A DNA stretch of 64,000 nucleotides from Myxococcales bacterium (GCA_037445065.1 JBBILD010000005.1:128001-192000), one strand, 5' to 3'. Numbered from the stretch's first letter, positions 15,931 through 28,885 are shown. Notes: generated from the sequence alone by a model not told the origin. Program-made: numbers and translations.

Positions 15931-16395
15931 CGCCGAAAGAGTTTCTTTGATCGAGCGGTGCCAGTGAGGCAGGTGCGGGATCCTGCATCATTGGCCGCAC
16001 TTGCCTTGCGGCCCGCAGACATTCATCCGCGACCACGTCGCTTTCATCCACCGCGCCGCCGCAGCCTTTTCGACCTCGCTTGGGGCCCGCTGGTCGTCCC
16101 TCGCCGGGAGGCCACATTCGCGTAGGCTCGGTCACTAGCGGGCCTGATTGCAAGGTCCCGGAAGTCCACGCACAATCCGGCCGTCGTTCCGCTGACAGCA
16201 GGGGCACACTCCACTGCGCTGCCACGAGCAAGCGCTAACGCTTCGCTGCTTTCTCCGCCAGTCTTTGGGCGGTGCAGTTGCGCCGTGCCAGGAGGAGTCC
16301 TGGCAGGCGCGCGTTCCACCGCAAGATGTTCGACTGTTCTCCGCGTCCTCCGCGGAGAGCCAGCGCAACGGGAGCCGGCATAAAGGTGCGAGAGA

Positions 16396-16468
16396 AGGCG
16401 GCGAGCGGATTCGAACCGCTGCATCGAGGTTTTGCAGACCTCTCCCTTAGCCACTTGGGTACGCCGCC
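16396..16468 (-). tRNA. tRNA-Cys(GCA)
   Basis: GGCGGCG acceptor stem, CCCAAGTGGCTAAGGG D arm, GAGGT-CTGCAAA-ACCTC anticodon arm, GGTTCGAATCC T loop, U73; CCA not encoded. Confidence 0.95.
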
Positions 16469-16586
16469 TCGAGTCGCTGCCTCGCTTAGCAAGCTTGCCG
16501 GAGGGCTTCAATTCGGTTTTCGCGCGTTGACCCGCGCGCCGGCCAACAGTAAGAACGCTCCACTTTCGTGGAAGCCGAGACGCAAG

Positions 16587-17891: not shown

Positions 17892-17965
17892 GCGGGTGTA
17901 GCTCAGCTGGCTAGAGCGTATGCTTGCCAAGCATAAGGTCGCCGGTTCGACCCCGGTCACCCGCT
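17892..17965 (+). tRNA. tRNA-Gly(GCC)
   Basis: GCGGGTG acceptor, TATGC-TTGCCAA-GCATA anticodon arm, GGTTCGACCCC T arm; TTGACT -35 at 17851. Confidence 0.95.
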
Positions 17966-17972
17966 CTTTCCG

Positions 17973-18002
17973 CCGGCCTCGGAATCGAGGCCGGTTTTCT
18001 TC
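17973..18002 (+). terminator. Rho-independent terminator after tRNA-Gly
   Basis: CCGGCCTCG-GAAT-CGAGGCCGG hairpin followed by TTTTCTTC. Confidence 0.8.
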
Positions 18003-18072
18003 TCTCGCCAGGCTTGCGCCTTCGAGCCACTTCGGTCATGGTGAAACTCGCCCGGAGAGGAGAGGCGCAGGC

Positions 18073-18546
18073 ATGTACGTGGTCGAAGTACTGGAGCAGT
18101 GCGCGGCACTGGCGACTCGGGTGGCTCGTCTATACCGGCAACTGGCCGAGCGGTTTCCCCATGATCCCGCACGAGCGCAGTTGTGGCGCGAACTCGCCTT
18201 CTTGGAAGAAACCCATGCGGAAGTGTTGCAGCGCGAACTCCGCAGTTTCGAGGAGCGCGAGGAGACCGGCGACTTCGTTCCGGAAATGGCGGAGCGTCTT
18301 CGGCAAGCGGAGGCGACGCTGAGTGCGATCGAGGCACAGCTTGCCGCTTCCCAAGGACCGGACGCCGCAATCGAGGCGTCCGTAGCGCTCGAGCAGATGC
18401 ACCTGGAGGAACTGTACGATGACTTGGTCATCCAGGGTGAGCCGGCGTTCCGCTTGTTGATGGAACGCTTAGAAGGGGCGTTAGCCCGCAGGCCCGAAAT
18501 TCCTCCCACGCTGGTACGCAGGCAATGGCTGGGAAGACAACCCTGA
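18073..18546 (+). CDS. Ferritin-like/rubrerythrin-like four-helix protein
   Basis: ARLYRQLAERF...LWRELAFLEETHA, ALEQ...LY pattern; GAGG RBS. Confidence 0.6.
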   Translation: MYVVEVLEQCAALATRVARLYRQLAERFPHDPARAQLWRELAFLEETHAEVLQRELRSFEEREETGDFVPEMAERLRQAEATLSAIEAQLAASQGPDAAIEASVALEQMHLEELYDDLVIQGEPAFRLLMERLEGALARRPEIPPTLVRRQWLGRQP

Positions 18547-18632
18547 GCAGGCAAAATCGCAACCGAGCCGCAGCAAAAGCGGGTCCGCGGGCTTACGCCG
18601 AGTTCGAACCATTTCGGCCGAGGTGGCAGGCA

Positions 18633-19604
18633 ATGTTTCGCAGTTTGGGATTCGAGAGCCGGCGCGGCGCGCGCCGAACCGCCGTATTTGCCCCGCTGCT
18701 GTTGGGAGTGCTTGCGCTGAGTGCCTGTGCCGCGAAAAAGCCAAAGAGTGCAGAGGAGTATTTCCGCGCCGCGAGCGCGAGTTTTCGCAGTGGCGCCTTG
18801 GGTGTAGCCAGCGAGCAGTTCCGCGAACTGCTCGACCAGCACCCGTTCAGCGAGTATGCCGAAGAGGCCGAGCTGCGTATTGCCCACGCCCATTACTTGG
18901 AGGGTCGCTACGCGGAAGCTGTGGTGGCGCTCACCGATTTCCAACGGCGCCACCCAACCAGCCCCCACTTGCCCCTGGTGGGGTACTTGCTCGGCATGTG
19001 CTACGCGCGGCAAATGTTGCCGATTGACCGCGACCAAACCGCGGCCCAGAACGCTCTCACCTACTTTCTGACCGTCGCTCGCCAGTATCCGGAGAGCCCG
19101 TACGCAGAACTGGCGCGCGAGGAACTCGAGCGTTGCCGCCGGCGCTTGGCCGGTCATGAAGCCTATGTGGCTGAGTTCTACGCCAAGCGTGGGCACTGGA
19201 AAGCGGCGGAGGTGCGGCTGCTGGAACTCGCGGCAAAGTACGGTTCCACCGAGGAAGGAACCCGAGGACTCCTCTCGCTTGCCCGCCACTATGAAAAGCA
19301 AGGCATGACCGACCGAGCCCGGCTCGCATACCAGGCCGTAGCGCAGGCACGACCGGGCAGCGCCGACGCCGTGGTGGCGCAGCGAGCACTCCAGCGCCTG
19401 CGCGTGGAAGAGCCAATTCGTGCGGCTGACCCCATTACGGTGCTGCTCGCGTTGAACGGTCGCTCTCAAGTGGTCGATTCCTTCGACACCGCCCAGGTGA
19501 CACCTCCGCAGCCGGCCCGCTTGCCCTCCAGTGCCGGGGCGATGCCGGTCCCGGCCGTTGGCACCGGGTTCGATCCGTTTGGTCGTGGCCGTTCCTACTA
19601 CTAA
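18633..19604 (+). CDS. bamD: Outer membrane protein assembly factor BamD
   Basis: LSAC lipobox; HPFSEYAEEAELRIAHAHY, FQRRHPTSP, DRDQT, YPESPY, LAGHEAYVAEFY. Confidence 0.88.
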   Translation: MFRSLGFESRRGARRTAVFAPLLLGVLALSACAAKKPKSAEEYFRAASASFRSGALGVASEQFRELLDQHPFSEYAEEAELRIAHAHYLEGRYAEAVVALTDFQRRHPTSPHLPLVGYLLGMCYARQMLPIDRDQTAAQNALTYFLTVARQYPESPYAELAREELERCRRRLAGHEAYVAEFYAKRGHWKAAEVRLLELAAKYGSTEEGTRGLLSLARHYEKQGMTDRARLAYQAVAQARPGSADAVVAQRALQRLRVEEPIRAADPITVLLALNGRSQVVDSFDTAQVTPPQPARLPSSAGAMPVPAVGTGFDPFGRGRSYY

Positions 19605-20361
19605 CCTCGGAGCATCTTCCTCCGCGCACGAGGCTTGGCGGCACGGTCGGGTGTTGATCGCCGGCGTGGGCGGTTTGGGCTGCCCGGCTGCCCTCCTCAT
19701 CGCCCAGGCGGGGGTCGGCAACCTCACGATCGTGGATCCCGACAGGGTCGAAGTTTCCAACCTTCACCGCCAGCCTCTGTTCGATGAACTTGACCTCGGC
19801 CAGCCCAAGGCGCTGGTCGCTGCGCAACGCTTACAGGAGCGGTTCCCAGCGCTGGCCATCAAAGGCCTTGTCGCCGCCGTAGAAGAGGAGAACATCGAGC
19901 CGCTGCTAACCGGGCACGACCTGCTGGTAGACGCCACAGACCGAATCGAAACCAAGCTTTGGCTGAACGATCAGTGCGTGCGACTCGGCATCCCGCTCGT
20001 CCATGCGGGAGCACTCGGCTGGCAGGGGCAGCTCTGCACCGTTTTACCCGGGCGCAGTGCGTGCTTACGCTGCATCTTTGCAGCGGCGGACGATGAGTCG
20101 CTGCGCTCCTCCTGCCGAGAAGCAGGGATCGTGGGTCCTGTGGTCGGCTATCTCGGCGCGCGGCAAGCCTTCGAGGCACTGGCGCTCCTGGCCGGAGAGT
20201 GGGGCCAACTCACGGCCGACCGCATGTTGCTGTTCGACGCCTGGCGTCCGAGCCTTCGCGTGGTACGCGTGAAACGCGACCCGAACTGCGCGGTGTGCGC
20301 TGGTGTTTTGCCAGCACGAAGCGACCACACTCGTAAGAACACCCGCGCTTGCAGCGCATAG
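19585..20361 (+). CDS. ThiF/MoeB family E1-like adenylyltransferase (active-site copy, lacks the N-terminal YSRQ arm)
   Basis: VLIAGVGGLG P-loop, DPDRVEVSNLHRQ, GQPK, DATD, CLRC, SCREAG catalytic Cys, CAVC; start uncertain. Confidence 0.9.
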   Translation: MAVPTTNLGASSSAHEAWRHGRVLIAGVGGLGCPAALLIAQAGVGNLTIVDPDRVEVSNLHRQPLFDELDLGQPKALVAAQRLQERFPALAIKGLVAAVEEENIEPLLTGHDLLVDATDRIETKLWLNDQCVRLGIPLVHAGALGWQGQLCTVLPGRSACLRCIFAAADDESLRSSCREAGIVGPVVGYLGARQAFEALALLAGEWGQLTADRMLLFDAWRPSLRVVRVKRDPNCAVCAGVLPARSDHTRKNTRACSA

Positions 20362-20448
20362 GGGAAGCTTTTACCAGTGGGTCTCACCGAAACGATTCCA
20401 AGTGTCTGCCCGAGCAGGCAGCGTTTGGCGTGAAAAAGGAGGTTCCAC

Positions 20449-20736
20449 ATGGGTGTTCGAGTTCGCATTCCAACGCCGCTCCGCCGGTACACCGATGGGA
20501 AAGAGGAGGTCGTCGCTTCGGGAGCCACCGTGGGGTCGGTGCTCGAAGATCTCGAGCAACACCATCCGGGCATCAAGGAACGGTTGTGCGATGAATCCGG
20601 GAAGGTCCGGAGATTCGTGAACATCTACGTGAATGGCGACGACATTCGCTTCCTCGATTCTCTGGACACCCCGGTGCGGGAGGGAGACGAGATTTCCATC
20701 GTGCCGGCGATTGCCGGCGGAGTTTTGAATGCCTGA
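20449..20736 (+). CDS. MoaD/ThiS/CysO-like ubiquitin-fold sulfur carrier with a C-terminal extension (GG-VLNA)
   Basis: VRIPTPLR...GATV...[16 protein letters not shown]...[19 protein letters not shown]. Confidence 0.95.
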
Positions 20737-21727
20737 GGCTGCGACCATCCGGTTGCGCCACACCCTGCGCCCGCGCAAAGCGAACTCGGTTCTCGATCTG
20801 GTCGGCAACACGCCTCTGCTCGAGCTCCGCAACCTGCGTGAAGGTGTGGCACCGGGGGTCCAAATCTACGCCAAGCTCGAGGGGTTCAACCCGGGCGGGT
20901 CCGTCAAGGATCGGCCGGCGGTATGGATGATCCGCGACGGCTTGCAGACTGGGAAACTGCGGCCGGGCAAGACGATCATCGACTCGACCTCTGGCAACAC
21001 AGGAATTGCTCTTGCGATGGCTGGGGCAGTCCTCGGCTATCCGGTCGAACTCGTCATGCCCGCCAATGTCAGCAAAGAACGCAAGCAAATTGTCTCGGCA
21101 TACGGGGCTAAAGTGATCTTCAGCGATCCTCTCGAGGGCTCCGATGGAGCCATCCGCCTGTGCCGCAAGATTCTCGCGGAAAACCCGGACAAGTACTTCA
21201 AACCCGATCAGTACTTCAACGAAGTGAACCCGCTGGCGCATTTCGAAAGCACCGGTCCGGAGATCTGGAACGACACCCGCGGTCGGGTCACCCATCTGGT
21301 CGCCGGCATCGGCACGGGTGGGACGATCATGGGCACCGGCCGTTATCTAAGAAGCCGCAACCCGGCCATTCAGGTGATTGCCGTGGAGCCTGATGACGCG
21401 TGGCACGGGCTGGAAGGACTCAAGCACATGGCGACCTCCATCGTACCGGGCATCTATCACGAGGAGGAACTGGACCGAAAAATTCCGGTGAGCACCGACG
21501 CCGCTTATGAAATGGTGTACCAAATCGCCGAACGCGAAGGCATTGTTGTCGGTCAGTCCTCCGGGGCAGCACTGGTGGGCGCGTTGGAGGTTGCGCGCGA
21601 ACTCCGCGAGGGGGTCGTGGTGGTCATCTTCCCGGACTTTGGCGACCGGTACCTGAGCACGAATCTCTGGGTTGGCTGGCGGGAGCGGCGTGCTCGCCTG
21701 GAGCGCATCCTGGCACAAAGTCTCTGA
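20729..21727 (+). CDS. PLP-dependent cysteine synthase family (CysM-like)
   Basis: [50 protein letters not shown]. Confidence 0.93.
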
Positions 21728-21733
21728 TCGCCC

Positions 21734-22402
21734 ATGCATCTCAACGAACAGGAGTTGGAGTGGTTCAGCCGCCAAATCCTGGCCAGCGGCGTCGGCGGGC
21801 GCGGGCAAGGAGCCTGGTTCGAGAGCGCTGTGGCCCTGGTGGGAAAGCCGGACTTGCTCGGACCGTGTGCTTTGTACCTAGCGCGCGCTGGGGTCGGTCA
21901 CATCGCAGTGCCGGCAGCGTTGCTCCCACAGTTGCCTCGCGGTGCCTGCCCGCGCACTTCCTGGTACGGCGAAGCTTTTCCAAGCGGTTTCTCCCGAGCC
22001 ACCGGTGTTTCCATCCACGCTTGCGAGGAGCCTGGCGCCTGGCACGCGCAAGTTCGCAAATGGCGCCCACAGCGTGCTGCGGTTTGGGTGTGGGTGCAAG
22101 GAACGCGCGCGTGGGTGGCGTACTGGCCGCAACCGTTTCAAAGTGCTTGCCCGCTCGATGACGAATTCTGGCAGTTGTGGTCCGAGCCCGGCAACGCCGC
22201 ATCGCACCAGAGTGCCGAGCCGGTCTACGGCTGGGGTGCGGCAACGTTGGCTGCCAGTCTAGCCTTGCGCGCTCTTTTAGAGCCGCGCGCGCAACAGGAG
22301 CACGCATGGTTTCTGCAGGACTTTGGGCGGGGCCTTGTCCGCCAGCAGGTCCGGCAAGCGTTCTCCACTCCCTGCGAGCATTGCCGAGGGCACTTGGTAT
22401 GA
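21734..22402 (+). CDS. Degenerate ThiF/MoeB-like protein (putative inactive adenylation subunit)
   Basis: LNEQELEWFSRQIL..GVGGRGQ and ALYLARAGVGHI match the MoeB N-terminus; P-loop replaced by GKPDLL; no SNLxRQ; C-terminal CEHC. Confidence 0.75.
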   Translation: MHLNEQELEWFSRQILASGVGGRGQGAWFESAVALVGKPDLLGPCALYLARAGVGHIAVPAALLPQLPRGACPRTSWYGEAFPSGFSRATGVSIHACEEPGAWHAQVRKWRPQRAAVWVWVQGTRAWVAYWPQPFQSACPLDDEFWQLWSEPGNAASHQSAEPVYGWGAATLAASLALRALLEPRAQQEHAWFLQDFGRGLVRQQVRQAFSTPCEHCRGHLV

Positions 22403-23676
22403 AGCTGGCACCCGCAAGCAGCGCCGGCAGCCGCCTCGCCGGCGAGCCCTGGCTCGCACACAAACTCTTGTGCAAAGGCGTGCAGGTCGGCGCCGCGCGA
22501 GAGGATGAACTCAGGCATACCGCGCATTGGCTCGCAGGCGCGTTCGGTTCGCCGCGACTCGAGATCGAGCTTCTCACACCCTCTCCGGCACGCCTACTGG
22601 TGGCCGTGCACACGGGCGAAAGCGACGGAGATCTGCCCCGACTCGAGCGAAGCGATGGGAGGTGGCAGCTCAGCACCGCGGGCGGGCCCATACCGGTGCG
22701 CATCCCTAGCCCCCCCGCCTGGTACGAGATCGAAGCTTCTACCGGACGCAAGATGGGGGAGATCGCGTGGCTGCTCGGTTCGGTTTTGATTTTCTTCCCG
22801 ACAACCAGTTGCGGGTATGGCCTGAGTGGTGCGAGCTGCCGCTTCTGTCGTGCCGGCTCTCGGTCCTTCGATGAGCGGGAGATGACGCTCGGTGCGAGCG
22901 AAGTGGCGCAAGTGGTGAGCGCGGCAAGCCGGGAGCGGCGCCTGCGCTACGTGTATTTCCCCGCCCAGCCATCCTTCGACTTAGAAGACGGCGGCGTCTG
23001 CGAGTTAGAGCCGCTGGTGAGGGCTGCCCGGAGGCACACCTCCGCACTGATCGCCGCGTCGTTCCATCCCCCGCGCACTCTCCGCTGGCTCGATCATGCT
23101 TACGCAATGGGAGTGGATGCTGCAGGGATTCACCTCGAGGTCATTGACGTCGAGACGCTCTCCCGTGCCTTGCCGGGACGGGCCCGGCACCTGGGCAAGT
23201 CGCGGTATTTTGCAGCGTTGCACCACGCCGCCCGCATCTTTCCTGCAGGCGCCATTTGGAGCGAGGTGGTGCTCGGCTGGGAGCCAGGGAGCGCACTGAG
23301 AGGTGATCTGCGGACTCTCGTAGAGGTAGGGGTCATTCCGGTTCTCATCCCCTTACGAAGCGAGGACCGGCCTTCGTCCTTCCCCGTCTCGCCGCCCGAC
23401 GCAGAAGAGCTTCGGCACGCCTGCCTCACCGTGGAGGCGGCGCTTCGCGGCAAACGTCTGTGCCCGCAGTGGATTCCTCCCCTCCCCTACGCCCTACCGA
23501 GGCTGCTGGACGATTGCCTTGAGCAAGAAGCAGTTCAGGCTCGCCTGTGGGCCGGCGTGAGCCGAGCGCAGCTGCTGGGTAACCTGGCTTTGCCACGCCT
23601 CGCCCGTTTGCGGCGGGCATTGCGCGTTCGCAGCCTGGACGACTCCACGGGCGAGGCGCCCCATGCAAGCCGGTAA
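22399..23676 (+). CDS. Radical SAM protein with a CX8CX2C motif (biotin-synthase-related/MSMEG_0568-like)
   Basis: CGYGLSGASCRFC; AYAMGVDAAGIHLE, PG+A.LG...YF.AL..A..IF, GVIPVLIPLR; ATGA overlap with the upstream gene. Confidence 0.75.
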   Translation: MKLAPASSAGSRLAGEPWLAHKLLCKGVQVGAAREDELRHTAHWLAGAFGSPRLEIELLTPSPARLLVAVHTGESDGDLPRLERSDGRWQLSTAGGPIPVRIPSPPAWYEIEASTGRKMGEIAWLLGSVLIFFPTTSCGYGLSGASCRFCRAGSRSFDEREMTLGASEVAQVVSAASRERRLRYVYFPAQPSFDLEDGGVCELEPLVRAARRHTSALIAASFHPPRTLRWLDHAYAMGVDAAGIHLEVIDVETLSRALPGRARHLGKSRYFAALHHAARIFPAGAIWSEVVLGWEPGSALRGDLRTLVEVGVIPVLIPLRSEDRPSSFPVSPPDAEELRHACLTVEAALRGKRLCPQWIPPLPYALPRLLDDCLEQEAVQARLWAGVSRAQLLGNLALPRLARLRRALRVRSLDDSTGEAPHASR

Positions 23677-25153
23677 CATGGATATCGCCAGCCCAGCCAG
23701 CTCCGCTCGCAAACCGCGGTACGTCGTGGACACCCGGCCCCTTTGGCGCATCCTCCTGCCAGGGGTCTTTCACGCGCTCTTGTGGTGTCTCGCCGCGGGG
23801 ATGTACTGGTGGGCAATCAGCACTCCGCCCCCGGCGGGGCTCAGCGAAGCGGGGCAGCGCGCGCTGGCGATTTTCGCCATTTGTGTGCTCTTCTGGGTGC
23901 TCAGCGTTCTACCGCTGATGGTCACCAGCTTGCTTGCCATCGTGCTGATCCCGCTTTCCGGGGTCATGAGCGCATCGCAAGCCTATTCGCTGTTCGGCAA
24001 CGAAGCCCTGTTTTTTATCCTCGGTGCTTTCATTTTGGCCGCCTGCCTGATGAAGTCGGGTCTCAGCACGCGCATCGCGCTGGCGATCTTGCATCGTTTC
24101 GGGCGGACTCCGCACTCACTCCTGTTCAGCGTACTACTGCTCAACGTCGTCATGGCCTTCTTCATGTCCGAGCATGCGGTAGCCGCGATGAACTTCCCCA
24201 TCATCGCCGAGATGACCCAAGTGTTGCGACTCACGCCGCGGCGCAGCAACTATGGCAAGGCGCTCTTTCTCGCGATGGCGTGGGGCTCGACCATTGGCGG
24301 CATCGCCACCTTGCTCGGGGGGGCACGCGCCCCGCTCGCGATCGGCATCTTACGCGAGACAACCGGCAAGTCGTTCACCTTCTTCGAGTGGAGCCAGGCA
24401 ATCTTTCCGCTCGTCGTTGTCCTCACCGGGGTGGCTTACGTGCTGCTCCGCTGGTTCTTCCCCGTTGACATTAACGACGTCCGTGCCGCCGACGAAGTGC
24501 TGCGCGAGCGCCGCTTGCGCCTCGGCAAGCCTCGCTACCAAGAACGGGCGATCGCCACCGTGATGCTGGCCACCCTCGCAGCATGGATCTTGCTCGGCGA
24601 GGAGTTCGGCTTGGCTAACGTCGCCCTGGTTTCCGTCGTCGTTTTGTTCCTGTTACGACTGGTCCATTGGAAAGAAATCGAAGGTTATGTGAACTGGGGC
24701 GTGCTGGTGATGTACGGTGGGGCAATTTGTCTCGGCTCGGCGCTGAGCAAGTCCGGGGCGGCTGGCTGGCTCGCGCACGCCACCATCCGCGACTGGGCCA
24801 CGAACTCCAGTGCGGTCATCTGGTTGCTTTCCTTGCTCGCGCTGGTGCTCACCGAAGCCATGAGCAATTCCGCGGTCGTGGCCATGCTGCTCCCGATGAG
24901 CCTCGGGATTGCGGGCGAGTTCGGGCTCGACCCCCGCGTGATCGCGCTCACTGTGGCGGTACCTGCTGGCTTGGCGACCACCCTACCGATCGGTACACCT
25001 GCAAACGCGATCGCGTTCTCGAGCGGCTACCTGTCGCTGCGTGACTTACTCCTCCCGGGCGCCACGCTGGCCTTCATTGCCTGGGTCGCGTTCAACCTCA
25101 TGGCGTGGTGGTACTGGCCATGGCTCGGCTTGCACATCGGGGGTGGAGGATGA
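23663..25153 (+). CDS. SLC13/DASS family anion (probably sulfate) transporter
   Basis: Many TM helices; MKSGLSTRIA, FMSEHA, GGIATLLG, VNWGVL..YGG, EAMSNSA, LPIGTPANAIAF. Confidence 0.92.
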   Translation: MQAGNMDIASPASSARKPRYVVDTRPLWRILLPGVFHALLWCLAAGMYWWAISTPPPAGLSEAGQRALAIFAICVLFWVLSVLPLMVTSLLAIVLIPLSGVMSASQAYSLFGNEALFFILGAFILAACLMKSGLSTRIALAILHRFGRTPHSLLFSVLLLNVVMAFFMSEHAVAAMNFPIIAEMTQVLRLTPRRSNYGKALFLAMAWGSTIGGIATLLGGARAPLAIGILRETTGKSFTFFEWSQAIFPLVVVLTGVAYVLLRWFFPVDINDVRAADEVLRERRLRLGKPRYQERAIATVMLATLAAWILLGEEFGLANVALVSVVVLFLLRLVHWKEIEGYVNWGVLVMYGGAICLGSALSKSGAAGWLAHATIRDWATNSSAVIWLLSLLALVLTEAMSNSAVVAMLLPMSLGIAGEFGLDPRVIALTVAVPAGLATTLPIGTPANAIAFSSGYLSLRDLLLPGATLAFIAWVAFNLMAWWYWPWLGLHIGGGG

Positions 25154-25614
25154 ATGCCGTACTGCTTCTACTGACGCCGGGGTCCCAACCCGGGCTTGCT
25201 CTGCAACGCGCCTTGGAGCGAGCCAAGGAGTCGCACGCAGTGCTTTACGCCGCCGTCGTGCTCCCAGCGCGACACTTAGATGAACTCGCCGGCCAACTCA
25301 TGGACCACGGCTTCATTGGCGAGAAGCTTAGTGAGGACGTGATCGAACACGTACGGCAGGAGCAAGTCGCTCTCGCGAACGAGGTTCTGGCAAGGGTACG
25401 GGAGGCGGCAGCACGAGCGGGCGTCGAAGTCGAAACGCAGGTGATCGAGGGCGAACCTTGGGAGGCTTGCGAAGCGGCTTCGACCCGCTTTTCCATCGCG
25501 CACGCAGTGCTGCCTGTGCCCGCCCGTGCGTGGTTCGAACGCTGGTGGCGCAAGCCCCGGGCCCCCGCCTGGGCGGAGGACCTGGGCTGTAACGTAGAAA
25601 CCGTGGAAGAGTAG
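25150..25614 (+). CDS. Universal stress protein family
   Basis: ALQRALERA..., LARVREAAARAGVEVETQVIEGEP; ATGA overlap with the transporter. Confidence 0.75.
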   Translation: MNAVLLLLTPGSQPGLALQRALERAKESHAVLYAAVVLPARHLDELAGQLMDHGFIGEKLSEDVIEHVRQEQVALANEVLARVREAAARAGVEVETQVIEGEPWEACEAASTRFSIAHAVLPVPARAWFERWWRKPRAPAWAEDLGCNVETVEE

Positions 25615-25629: not shown

Positions 25630-26889
25630 ATGGCCGATTTGGTTCCCGTGCACGGGGGTTTAGAATCGCCCGTCAACCGCGTCGTTCCTCTCGGACGCCG
25701 CAAGCAGTTTCTCGAGGAAGCCAAGGATTTCGCCCGCGTGGAAGTGAGCCGGGCCGATCTCTCCACCGTCTATCGCATCGCAGACGGAACCCTTTCGCCT
25801 CTGACCGGCCCGATGGACGAAGACACCTGGCACTACGTCCTCGACCACGATGCGCTGGATTTCGGCTTTCGCCATTATGCGTGGACGGCGCCCATTTCCT
25901 TCCCGGTCACTGACGACGAAGCGCGCCGGGTGCGCATCGGGAAGCCCGTGGCCCTCTTTCACGAAGGGCAGACTGTGGGAATGGTACGCGTGACCAGCCT
26001 TTTCGACTGGGATAAGCCAAAGCACATCGAACGCTTCTACGGAACGCGCCGGACCGATCACCCTGGTGCGCGCATGATTCTCGAAGATCCCCGTACCAAG
26101 CTGATCGGCGGCGAGCTTTGGGCTCTGCCGCAGGAGGTCGATCCGGAATACGGCGAGTTCGTTCTTTCGCCTCGCCAAGTGCGCACGCTGATTGCCGAGC
26201 GGCGTTGGGAACGGGCGCTCGCCTTCCAAACCCGCAACCCGTTGCACCGAGCACATGAGTACGCACTGGTGGCTGGCGTCGAGCGCCTGACCCGCGAGGG
26301 ATACTTTGCAGGTGTGGTCTTGAACCCGCTGGTCGGTGAACTGAAGGGAGACGACGTGCCGGCTCGCGCCCGCATGCGCTGCTACCGCGCCCTGCACGAC
26401 CTCAAGCTGCTCGGCAAAGGAGACAAGGACGAGGCTTTGTGGCGCGAGAAAGGCTACGACCTCACGGAGGTCTTCGAGCTCGTCGGCCTGGACATCAAGA
26501 TGCTTTACGGAGGCCCCAAGGAAGCGGTGATGCACGCGATCTACCGCCAAAACCTGGGGTTCACCGACATTGTCATTGGACGCAAGCATGCCGACGCCCC
26601 GTATGATGACGGCTCCCCGATCTGGGGCGATTTCGATGCGCAAGAGATTTTCCGCGAGCTCCGCGGGGACCTGCGCATCCAGCCTTGCAACATCGGTTTC
26701 GCGGCATACTTCGAAAGTGTCGGGCGCGTGGACCTCATCGAGAATCATCCCGGCGAGAAACCTGTATCCATTTCGGGCTCAAGCATCCGAGAAATGCTCA
26801 CCCGCGGGGAGCGTCCCGACGAGCGGATTCTCAGACCAGAGATCGCTGACATCCTGATCGCCTACTACCGGGAGAAAGCCTCTCGCTGA
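25630..26889 (+). CDS. sat: Sulfate adenylyltransferase (ATP sulfurylase)
   Basis: LVPVHGG, SPLTGPM, AFQTRNPLHRAHE, NPLVGELKGDD, YGGPKEA.MHAIYRQN, IGRKHA, SISGS.IREML. Confidence 0.93.
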   Translation: MADLVPVHGGLESPVNRVVPLGRRKQFLEEAKDFARVEVSRADLSTVYRIADGTLSPLTGPMDEDTWHYVLDHDALDFGFRHYAWTAPISFPVTDDEARRVRIGKPVALFHEGQTVGMVRVTSLFDWDKPKHIERFYGTRRTDHPGARMILEDPRTKLIGGELWALPQEVDPEYGEFVLSPRQVRTLIAERRWERALAFQTRNPLHRAHEYALVAGVERLTREGYFAGVVLNPLVGELKGDDVPARARMRCYRALHDLKLLGKGDKDEALWREKGYDLTEVFELVGLDIKMLYGGPKEAVMHAIYRQNLGFTDIVIGRKHADAPYDDGSPIWGDFDAQEIFRELRGDLRIQPCNIGFAAYFESVGRVDLIENHPGEKPVSISGSSIREMLTRGERPDERILRPEIADILIAYYREKASR

Positions 26890-27944: not shown

Positions 27945-28261
27945 GCGCCCAGCGTAGTCTGCCTGGGCTACCTACTGCTAGTCGGAGGCGCTGTCTTCAG
28001 GAAAAAGCCAGCATACCCGTTAACGGGGCTCTGCTTGGTACGCTGCTGAGGGACCATTCTTGTGGCCCGGTCGGCACGCGCTCCTTTGGATGGGGCGAGA
28101 AGATCCGATGCCGGTCCTCGCAGGAAACCAGTCAAGGGCGCAAGCGATGGGCTAGGCTGCGCTCGGCGCCATAGCGTACGAGAATGCATCGCTTGCAAAA
28201 CTCGGCGCTAACTGCGCCTGCACCGTTCCCCGTCGTCAGTGGCTCTGCTATCGGTGCTCAC

Positions 28262-28885
28262 ATGCCGCGGATCCCCCGGCTCTGCCTCGTCACGGACCGC
28301 CACGCGACAGCCGGGCGGGATCTGCTTTCCACAGTCGAACGCGCGCTCGCTGGCGGTGCCGATGCCGTGCAGCTTCGCGAAAAGGACCTCACGGCACGCG
28401 AATTGTGCGAACTCGGCTCGAAGCTCGTCACCCTCTGCCAGCGTTATGGAGCGAGCCTGCTCATCAACGACCGCCTCGACGTTGCACTCGCAATTGGGGC
28501 GGATGGGGTGCAGCTACCGGAGCGTTCTTTCGCGCCGTGCGAAGCGAGGCAATTGCTTGGCGCCGGCAGGCTGATCGGCGTGTCCAGACACCGCGTGCAA
28601 GATCTTACTCCCGCACTCCTCGAGGGTGCAGATTTCGTGTTGTTCGGGCCCATATTCGACACACCGAGCAAGCGTTCCTATGGCGCCCCGCTCGGCCTCT
28701 CGACACTGCGCGAAGCGACGGCACGAAGCCCGCTTCCCGTGCTCGCCATCGGAGGCATTCACCCCGAGCATGTGCCCAAGGTCATGGCCGCAGGAGCCTA
28801 CGGCGTCGCCACGATCCGCGCGCTGCTTGGGGTGGCTGCTCCCGAGAAGGAAGCCGCCCGCTTTCGCTCCGCTCTGCCGCGCTAG
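28262..28885 (+). CDS. thiE: Thiamine-phosphate synthase
   Basis: VQLREKD, LLINDRLDVA, GVS.H, FGPIFDTPSK, AIGGI. Confidence 0.93.
   Translation: MPRIPRLCLVTDRHATAGRDLLSTVERALAGGADAVQLREKDLTARELCELGSKLVTLCQRYGASLLINDRLDVALAIGADGVQLPERSFAPCEARQLLGAGRLIGVSRHRVQDLTPALLEGADFVLFGPIFDTPSKRSYGAPLGLSTLREATARSPLPVLAIGGIHPEHVPKVMAAGAYGVATIRALLGVAAPEKEAARFRSALPR

Follow-up and report, generated by a model that had tools for sequence, protein, structure and literature searches.

A candidate asymmetric two-gene E1-like enzyme of the ThiF/MoeB type in a predicted cysteine-biosynthesis operon of a Myxococcales bacterium

We analyzed a 64,000-nucleotide stretch of DNA from a Myxococcales bacterium (GCA_037445065.1, JBBILD010000005.1:128001-192000; the whole stretch is called the window below, and all positions are counted from its first letter) in which two paralogous genes of the ThiF/MoeB type of E1-like adenylyltransferases, here copy A and copy B, lie in a single compact operon. 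The two predicted proteins have complementary features: A retains a full set of adenylation-site residues and lacks the N-terminal arm that carries the arginine finger, whereas B has the arm but no longer the nucleotide site. The best explanation, to which we give somewhat better than even credence, is that A and B together make up an asymmetric ThiF/MoeB-type enzyme that activates a CysO-like ubiquitin-like protein (Ubl) for CysM-dependent cysteine synthesis. Support comes from the complementary features themselves, the ThiF fold of B, the conservation of both types, their co-occurrence across genomes, purifying selection on B-like genes, and a natural fusion. The two genes and their key elements are as follows.

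19585..20361 (or from 19531), plus strand: copy A, ThiF/MoeB-type adenylyltransferase without the N-terminal Arg-finger arm (Pfam ThiF, E 1e-69)
19663..19680, plus strand: A P-loop GVGGLG, residues 27-32 counted from 19585 (translation; aligns to MoeB GLGGLG)
21734..22402, plus strand: copy B, degenerate ThiF-fold paralog, arm kept, nucleotide site lost (Pfam ThiF at residues 11-59 only)
21746..21778, plus strand: B arm, residues 5-15, EQELEWFSRQI (profile alignment to MoeB and ThiF)
21842..21859, plus strand: B degenerate P-loop position GKPDLL, residues 37-42 (translation; joint alignments)

Both open reading frames (ORFs) lie where the initial annotation of this DNA had placed them (19585-20361 and 21734-22402), and its account of A as a protein with a complete motif set, no arm, and upstream sequence within the gene bamD was borne out by alignments and a three-frame motif scan. 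A is a bare 258-aa ThiF domain, in which Pfam detected no rhodanese domain, and its Pfam ThiF match (E 1e-69) spans profile positions 14-237 of 238. Residues 31-257 aligned to residues 24-248 of Escherichia coli MoeB (E 2.9e-44; 1.5e-43 against ThiF), leaving MoeB residues 1-23, R14 included, unmatched. The protein carries the motifs GVGGLG, SNLHRQ, PK, DATD, CLRC, SCREAG, and CAVC, in which R62 (SNLHRQ), K75 (PK), and D119 (DATD) align to MoeB R73, K86, and D130; C160/C163 and C235/C238 form two CxxC zinc motifs, and C177 is the crossover-loop cysteine (MoeB C187). Twelve of its residues show no variation among 30 armless homologs: G27, G29, G32, R62, K75, D116, D119, C160, C163, C177, C235, and C238. 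Copy A is predicted to be a catalytically complete ThiF/MoeB adenylation domain without the trans Arg-finger arm, a type that databases annotate as ordinary MoeB or ThiF.

The start of A is ambiguous, with four in-frame candidates (GTG at 19531, GTG at 19585, GTG at 19651, and TTG at 19654) for an ORF that ends at 20361, and the missing arm could in principle be an artefact of start codon choice, a frameshift, or an assembly error. This we consider very improbable. No [YFW]xRQ motif occurs upstream of A in any of the three frames, that DNA being filled by the 3' end of bamD, and the arm is equally absent from the relatives. We took the 120 best homologs of A and sought the arm motif before the P-loop in the 119 with a recognizable P-loop; against the possibility, raised in the initial annotation, that orthologs of A carry the arm, it was absent in 114 of the 119, and four of the remaining five were canonical ERYSRQ proteins. 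It was also absent from 39 ORFs read from stop to stop in independent genomes. As judged from these homologs, armlessness is a clade trait rather than a peculiarity of this genome.

The N-terminus of copy B reads MHLNEQELEWFSRQIL. Profile alignment and translation agree with the initial annotation that B has an arginine, R13 (21770-21772), equivalent to MoeB R14, that GKPDLL stands at the P-loop position, that SNLxRQ is absent, and that one CxxC (CEHC) remains. The segment WFSR13QIL aligns to RYNR14QII of MoeB and RYSR11QIL of ThiF. On its own B matched Pfam ThiF weakly, with residues 11-59 on profile positions 1-49 (E 7.5e-4; 19.1 bits, under the 28.1 cut-off), and a direct alignment of A with B covered 41 residues only (34% identity, E 0.001). 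In contrast, its relative in L064, a metagenome-assembled genome (MAG) of a Candidatus Binatia, exceeded the Pfam cut-off at 105.5 bits, and a profile of 22 B-like sequences, whose arm reads RYSRQI, matched E. coli ThiF (E 3e-26) and MoeB (E 1.7e-25) end to end. An AlphaFold2 model of B, built on a 78-sequence alignment, reached a predicted local distance difference test score (pLDDT) of 88.8 and a predicted template-modeling score (pTM) of 0.88; Foldseek matched it best among PDB entries to ThiF 1zud (E 1.5e-11, TM score 0.59-0.69), followed by Uba4, MoeB, and SAE1. In a joint A/B alignment the B family is without a block of ~30 residues, the one to which the second ATP-binding arginine and the lysine of A belong, and the corresponding SNLxRQ...PK segment is absent both in B and in the B-like sequences that were classified and aligned. 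Profiles and the predicted fold together indicate that B is a true full-length ThiF-fold paralog of the ThiF/MoeB kind, in a degenerate form. B-like proteins are labeled "ThiF family domain-containing" or "hypothetical" in databases.

A word-indexed search with B returned one full-length relative only, at 93% identity. An exhaustive HMMER search gave 137 hits, two of them at 40% identity over the full length, and among these 137 were 62 B-like representatives of 50%-identity clusters, defined as proteins of at least 150 aa with the arm present and both the P-loop and SNLxRQ absent. The nearest ESM Atlas clusters have 70-111 members, mostly Binatota. In the 22-sequence alignment all six invariant columns (S12, R13, Q14, G21, Q25, and G53) and 12 of the 16 nearly invariant columns fall within residues 1-55, and by this measure the arm is the most conserved part of B-like proteins. 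Ratios of nonsynonymous to synonymous substitution rates (dN/dS) by the Nei-Gojobori method, computed for locus pairs that exclude the window's own A and B, were 0.19-0.42 for B-like genes (nine of 10 pairs, dS being saturated in the tenth), 0.15-0.42 for A-like genes (10 pairs; ORFs taken from stop to stop, which may inflate these values), and 0.11-0.24 for cysM (eight pairs). B-like genes are under purifying selection; the relaxed selection on B that the initial annotation had envisaged was not found, the B-like range lying near that of the A-like genes.

The reading of B as a decaying ThiF duplicate, a functionless relic, is largely refuted by these results, and we regard it as highly improbable. 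It would account for the match of the window's B below the Pfam cut-off, for the single close homolog in the word-indexed search, and for the very long branch of B in the tree described below. Against it stand the dN/dS values, the confident predicted fold, an intact ORF, and the retention of B-like genes in Binatota, in MAGs labeled Myxococcota, in FCPU426, and in a Chloroflexota MAG. The codon-position GC content of B (0.69/0.56/0.70 for positions 1/2/3) follows the pattern of the neighboring genes and thus supports its reading frame. We therefore rejected both the pseudogene and the start-codon-artefact readings, on the strength of dN/dS, the upstream frames, and the armless homologs.

Co-occurrence was assessed in 80 loci from genome_contigs, fetched with an alignment of armless homologs, in which the main ThiF ORF was read from stop to stop and proved armless in 39 and arm-bearing in 41. 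A separate B-like ORF lay nearby in 26 of the 39 armless loci and in none of the 41 arm-bearing ones, so that the alternative considered in the initial annotation, that B is not conserved with A, found no support here; limited to loci with adequate flank, the proportion was 26 of 31. The 13 armless loci without B comprise seven with less than 2.6 kb of downstream sequence, one (L017) with a second, arm-bearing ThiF, and five others considered below. A narrower genome_contigs scan with the five closest A orthologs returned no relative, and this includes the window's own relative at 93-94% identity. In most Binatia-type loci the order is A, a PALP enzyme, the Ubl gene, cysM, and B; A and B are directly adjacent in L028, L035, and L045, and in L043 B and cysM lie ~5 kb upstream of A. 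The PALP enzyme between A and the Ubl gene in most Binatia-type loci (e.g., L010:7712-8980) is a 422-aa protein with an N-terminal NinF-like zinc ribbon, which we take to be ThrC-like, and a HAD hydrolase follows B in these loci (L010:11192-11878); both are absent from the window operon. Two MAG loci (L005:10620-11224 and L037:9333-11433) have a B-like gene broken across two or three reading frames, which may reflect a frameshift or an assembly error. The Thermodesulfobacteriota MAG locus L017 (405-3964) encodes an armless ThiF, a Ubl fused to an extra C-terminal domain, and a complete arm-bearing ThiF whose P-loop and SNLxRQ are intact; it may represent a less degenerate state of the pair or two separate enzymes.

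In a FastTree phylogeny of 102 sequences, 20 B-like rows fell on one side of a single branch (support 97), and 39 of the 40 armless rows, the window's A included, fell within a 39-row set (support 98). The tree is not fixed at its root, midpoint rooting having placed it inside the B-like clade, so the sister group of B is unreadable from it, and the window's B, given the long branches, cannot be placed safely. The armless row outside the main armless clade is a Magnetococcales ThiF (L078:6914-7693), which has no B-like neighbor and may have lost the arm independently. Going by record titles and NCBI taxonomy, the carriers of B-like genes are Binatota, MAGs labeled Deltaproteobacteria or Myxococcota, FCPU426, and a MAG titled "uncultured proteobacterium" (L026, counted under Pseudomonadota); a weaker occurrence was seen in a Limnocylindria MAG (Chloroflexota).

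The two types also occur in one polypeptide. In the 502-aa protein P0264 an armless ThiF domain (residues 7-218) is followed by TusA (251-317) and then by a B-like domain whose arm, RFARQ, lies near residue 340. With MAFFT, B-like rows aligned alone fell on the C-terminal domain of P0264, and in seven trials with mixed A-like and B-like rows all rows fell on one domain. The presence of TusA in P0264 hints that a TusA-type sulfur carrier may serve the A/B enzyme. A search for longer fused forms of B yielded a single hit, an algal ThiF+rhodanese protein, and no B fusion, a blank that is weak evidence.

The operon around A and B runs on the plus strand as a single compact gene string at approximately 18.5-26.9 kb, from bamD through the ATP sulfurylase gene, with the following members besides A and B.

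18525..19604, plus strand: bamD, outer membrane assembly lipoprotein (Pfam YfiO, E 5.5e-39; NCBIfam TIGR03302, E 5.9e-58)
20449..20736, plus strand: CysO/MoaD/SAMP-like ubiquitin-fold sulfur carrier, the Ubl (Pfam ThiS, E 8.2e-20)
20729..21727, plus strand: cysM-type pyridoxal phosphate-dependent cysteine synthase (Pfam PALP, E 3.4e-74)
22399..23676, plus strand: variant radical-SAM-like gene (NCBIfam variant_rSAM domain, E 1.7e-27; 96.4 bits, below the 125 cut-off)
23663..25153, plus strand: DASS/SLC13-type anion (sulfate-type) symporter (Pfam Na_sulph_symp, E 9.3e-65; NCBIfam dass, E 2e-80)
25105..25614, plus strand: weak universal-stress-protein-like ORF (Pfam Usp, E 0.0023, below cut-off; kept in L064)
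25630..26889, plus strand: sat, sulfate adenylyltransferase (ATP sulfurylase; Pfam ATP-sulfurylase, E 1.9e-56; PUA_2, E 5.8e-29)

The genes are tightly packed. At its 5' end the A ORF overlaps the tail of bamD, whose stop codon lies at 19602-19604; the adjacency of bamD and A recurs in L001, L007, L046, and L064. The cysM gene overlaps the Ubl gene by 8 nt, the gap between the cysM stop and the start of B is 6 nt, and the B stop overlaps the ATG of the next gene (ATGA). The L064 MAG reproduces the entire window order from bamD to sat, and 20 of the 80 loci have a sat homolog downstream of the operon. The initial annotation was right that the Ubl is encoded between A and B, but cysM (20729-21727) lies there as well. 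The Ubl scored above the NCBIfam cut-offs for SAMP1 (69.5 bits; cut-off 60) and moaD_arch (54.8 bits; cut-off 49.5). Its C-terminus, AIAGG-VLNA, has four residues past the GG; in 28 homologous Ubl ORFs ending in AIAGG, zero to four residues follow, a single R being commonest (17/28). The cysteine synthase passed the NCBIfam cysKM model (357 bits; cut-off 344) and fell under the cysM cut-off (384 bits; cut-off 394). In Mycobacterium tuberculosis, CysO and CysM synthesize cysteine through a protein thiocarboxylate. By homology to that pathway, the operon context points to sulfate assimilation feeding CysO/CysM-type cysteine synthesis via a protein thiocarboxylate.

Several further features of the region were recorded. 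The radical-SAM-like gene (22399-23676) has the cysteine motif Cx8Cx2C (SCGYGLSGASCRFC) rather than CxxxCxxC and gave no Pfam match at E 0.01; its homologs in L064 and L042 follow B and neighbor A, respectively. Closely 5' of the operon are a tRNA-Cys(GCA) at 16394-16469 (minus strand) and a tRNA-Gly(GCC) at 17892-17966 (plus strand), the latter followed directly on its 3' side by a GC-rich terminator-like hairpin with a T-run (17972-17995); because this tRNA and hairpin occupy its start, the long ORF listed at 17920-18546 must begin later. A thiamine-phosphate synthase gene (TMP-TENI, E 1.1e-56) lies at 28184-28885, 1.3 kb past sat, and the window contains no thiS, thiG, or second thiF. A Pfam scan of the 54 other window ORFs revealed no further ThiF family member and nothing E2-like.

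We infer from these data a physical A/B heterodimer, a trans contact between B-R13 and ATP, and whatever dependence A may have on B, according to the following scheme. A and B would be the two subunits of an asymmetric dimer whose sole working adenylation site is in A. Catalytically dead B would use the conserved ThiF dimer interface to bind A, and its N-terminal arm would enter the ATP site of A, where B-R13 would replace the trans arginine finger (MoeB R14, ThiF R11). A would then adenylate the C-terminal glycine of the adjacently encoded Ubl, the Ubl would be converted to a thiocarboxylate, and CysM would use it to make cysteine, with sulfur supplied via the co-encoded sulfate transporter and ATP sulfurylase. 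B may additionally dock the sulfur donor. For the Ubl/CysM chemistry the scheme relies on homology to the CysO/CysM pathway of M. tuberculosis, which it would be expected to follow. That such pairs constitute a widespread bacterial two-subunit E1-like enzyme, its dead paralog kept mainly to deliver the Arg finger and perhaps to dock a sulfur donor, is a broader proposal that we advance tentatively, at slightly under an even chance.

The main competing explanation, possible though on balance unlikely, is that A works alone as a fingerless homodimer, like E. coli TcdA, and that non-catalytic B serves the same pathway in some other way, either as a regulator or as an adaptor for the Ubl, CysM, a TusA-type sulfur donor, or the radical-SAM-like protein. 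In the accessible part of a 2026 Nucleic Acids Research paper, the MoeB R14 and ThiF R11 fingers are reported to come from the neighboring subunit and chelate the gamma-phosphate, and not to be essential, and E. coli TcdA is described as lacking the finger (PMC13139853); an A homodimer could therefore be active. This alternative also draws on the five armless loci without a B-like ORF within 7 kb, on the translational coupling of B to the radical-SAM-like gene rather than to A, and on the location of TusA between the two ThiF-like parts of P0264. An adaptor role, however, leaves unexplained why the SRQ arm is invariant while the rest of B drifts to ~21% mean column identity, and why B-like genes are found only beside armless ThiFs (26/39 vs. 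0/41).

A number of observations weigh against a paired A/B enzyme and have to be set beside its support. An unfiltered hidden Markov model search of ~7 kb of flank on each side found no B-like ORF in L003, L012, L020, L073, or L078, although B could be encoded elsewhere in these genomes. Since armless and B-like sequences each form approximately one clade, their co-occurrence may reflect one origin and retention rather than repeated association. The window's B is the most divergent member of its family (22-28% identity to most others, end branch 2.21), and selection on B is known from its relatives. Across the 78-sequence set, whose mean column identity is 21%, R13, G21, Q25, and G53 do not vary, a result that is partly circular for R13 because the arm motif helped choose the set. 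The Pfam scan found no TusA, rhodanese, or JAMM/MPN gene in the window, and A itself is without a rhodanese domain. The interpretation offered in the initial annotation is thus supported in part. Its claim that the pairing is obligate is unsupported, given both the non-essential finger of MoeB and ThiF, as far as the published account goes (PMC13139853), and the five armless loci without B.

If the A/B reading is true, it would bear on how and why the asymmetric active/inactive form of E1 arose, an open evolutionary question. Symmetric homodimers of the MoeB/ThiF kind are regarded as the ancestors of E1 enzymes. The pair would be a minimal two-gene bacterial system in a plain sulfur-carrier pathway, without a Cys domain, a ubiquitin-fold domain (UFD), or an E2, and would indicate that a eukaryote-like active/inactive adenylation split also arose, independently or earlier, in sulfur-carrier metabolism. 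Such a system would let one ask whether asymmetry brings half-site control, directionality, or a face left free for the sulfur donor, and would make the contribution of the trans Arg finger directly testable. It would also correct the annotation of B-like and armless A-like proteins.

Compared with MoeB and ThiF of E. coli (PDB 1jw9 and 1zud), A has all of their ATP, zinc, and cysteine residues, the B family matches both over its full length, and the partner Ubl is of the MoaD/ThiS type. The difference is that MoeB and ThiF are symmetric homodimers with a site and an arm on every subunit, whereas here these would reside on separate polypeptides. The CysO-CysM-MoeZR(-Mec) system of M. tuberculosis (for MoeZR, PMC3227635) similarly brings together, in one sulfur-assimilation context, a carrier of the MoaD/ThiS type, a synthase of the CysM type, and an activator of the ThiF type. 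In contrast to the MoeZ type, the window's activator lacks a rhodanese domain and would be divided between A and B, and the JAMM peptidase is not in the window, although the Ubl has residues past its GG.

One-way arginine transfer within a ThiF-family heterocomplex has a precedent in yeast Tcd1-Tcd2, which makes cyclic N6-threonylcarbamoyladenosine (ct6A): in the available portion of the report, Tcd1 Arg59 is a finger to the Tcd2 active site with none returned, and Tcd1 R59A cut the ct6A/t6A ratio by 26%, so that the finger was not essential (PMC13139853). That complex differs in acting on tRNA t6A rather than a Ubl and in being eukaryotic and mitochondrial. Among bacteria, BilD of the type II Bil antiviral system pairs an inactive with an active adenylation domain (IAD and AAD) in a pseudo-dimer in which a key arginine is contributed across, according to the accessible part of the preprint, which describes all other known bacterial E1-like proteins as homodimeric (PMC10557695). 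As described there, BilD carries IAD and then AAD on one polypeptide, together with a CYS domain, and acts with an E2, whereas the system considered here is encoded by two genes in a predicted cysteine-biosynthesis operon and has no CYS domain. The portion of Iyer et al. (2006) available to us lists operons of ThiS/MoaD, E1(+rhodanese), JAB, and cysteine synthase, with no second, inactive E1-like gene, and full-text literature searches turned up no bacterial MoeB/ThiF pair described as having its active and inactive members encoded by two genes. The active/inactive E1 split itself is thus already known from eukaryotes and bacterial BilD; it is the separate two-gene bacterial form that we have not found described.

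The closest eukaryotic counterparts are SAE1/UBA2 and NAE1(APPBP1)/UBA3, which, at the sequence level, likewise combine an active subunit without the finger and an inactive subunit that keeps the arm. The arm of the B profile matches SAE1 residues 12-68 (E 0.004-0.006), the B model superimposes on SAE1 with a query-based TM score (TMq) of 0.69, and A residue 31/32 aligns to SAE2 residue 11/12, consistent with an armless active subunit. These enzymes differ in their catalytic-Cys domain insertion, UFD, and E2, which have no counterpart in the window, where the context is that of a sulfur carrier; they are also heterodimers, whereas the heterodimer of A and B is a predicted one. The parallel with the eukaryotic split drawn in the initial annotation therefore holds at the sequence level and does not extend to shared ancestry: because the B family is far closer to bacterial ThiF and MoeB than to SAE1 or NAE1, the likeness is best described as a parallel between a eukaryotic design and a candidate bacterial one.

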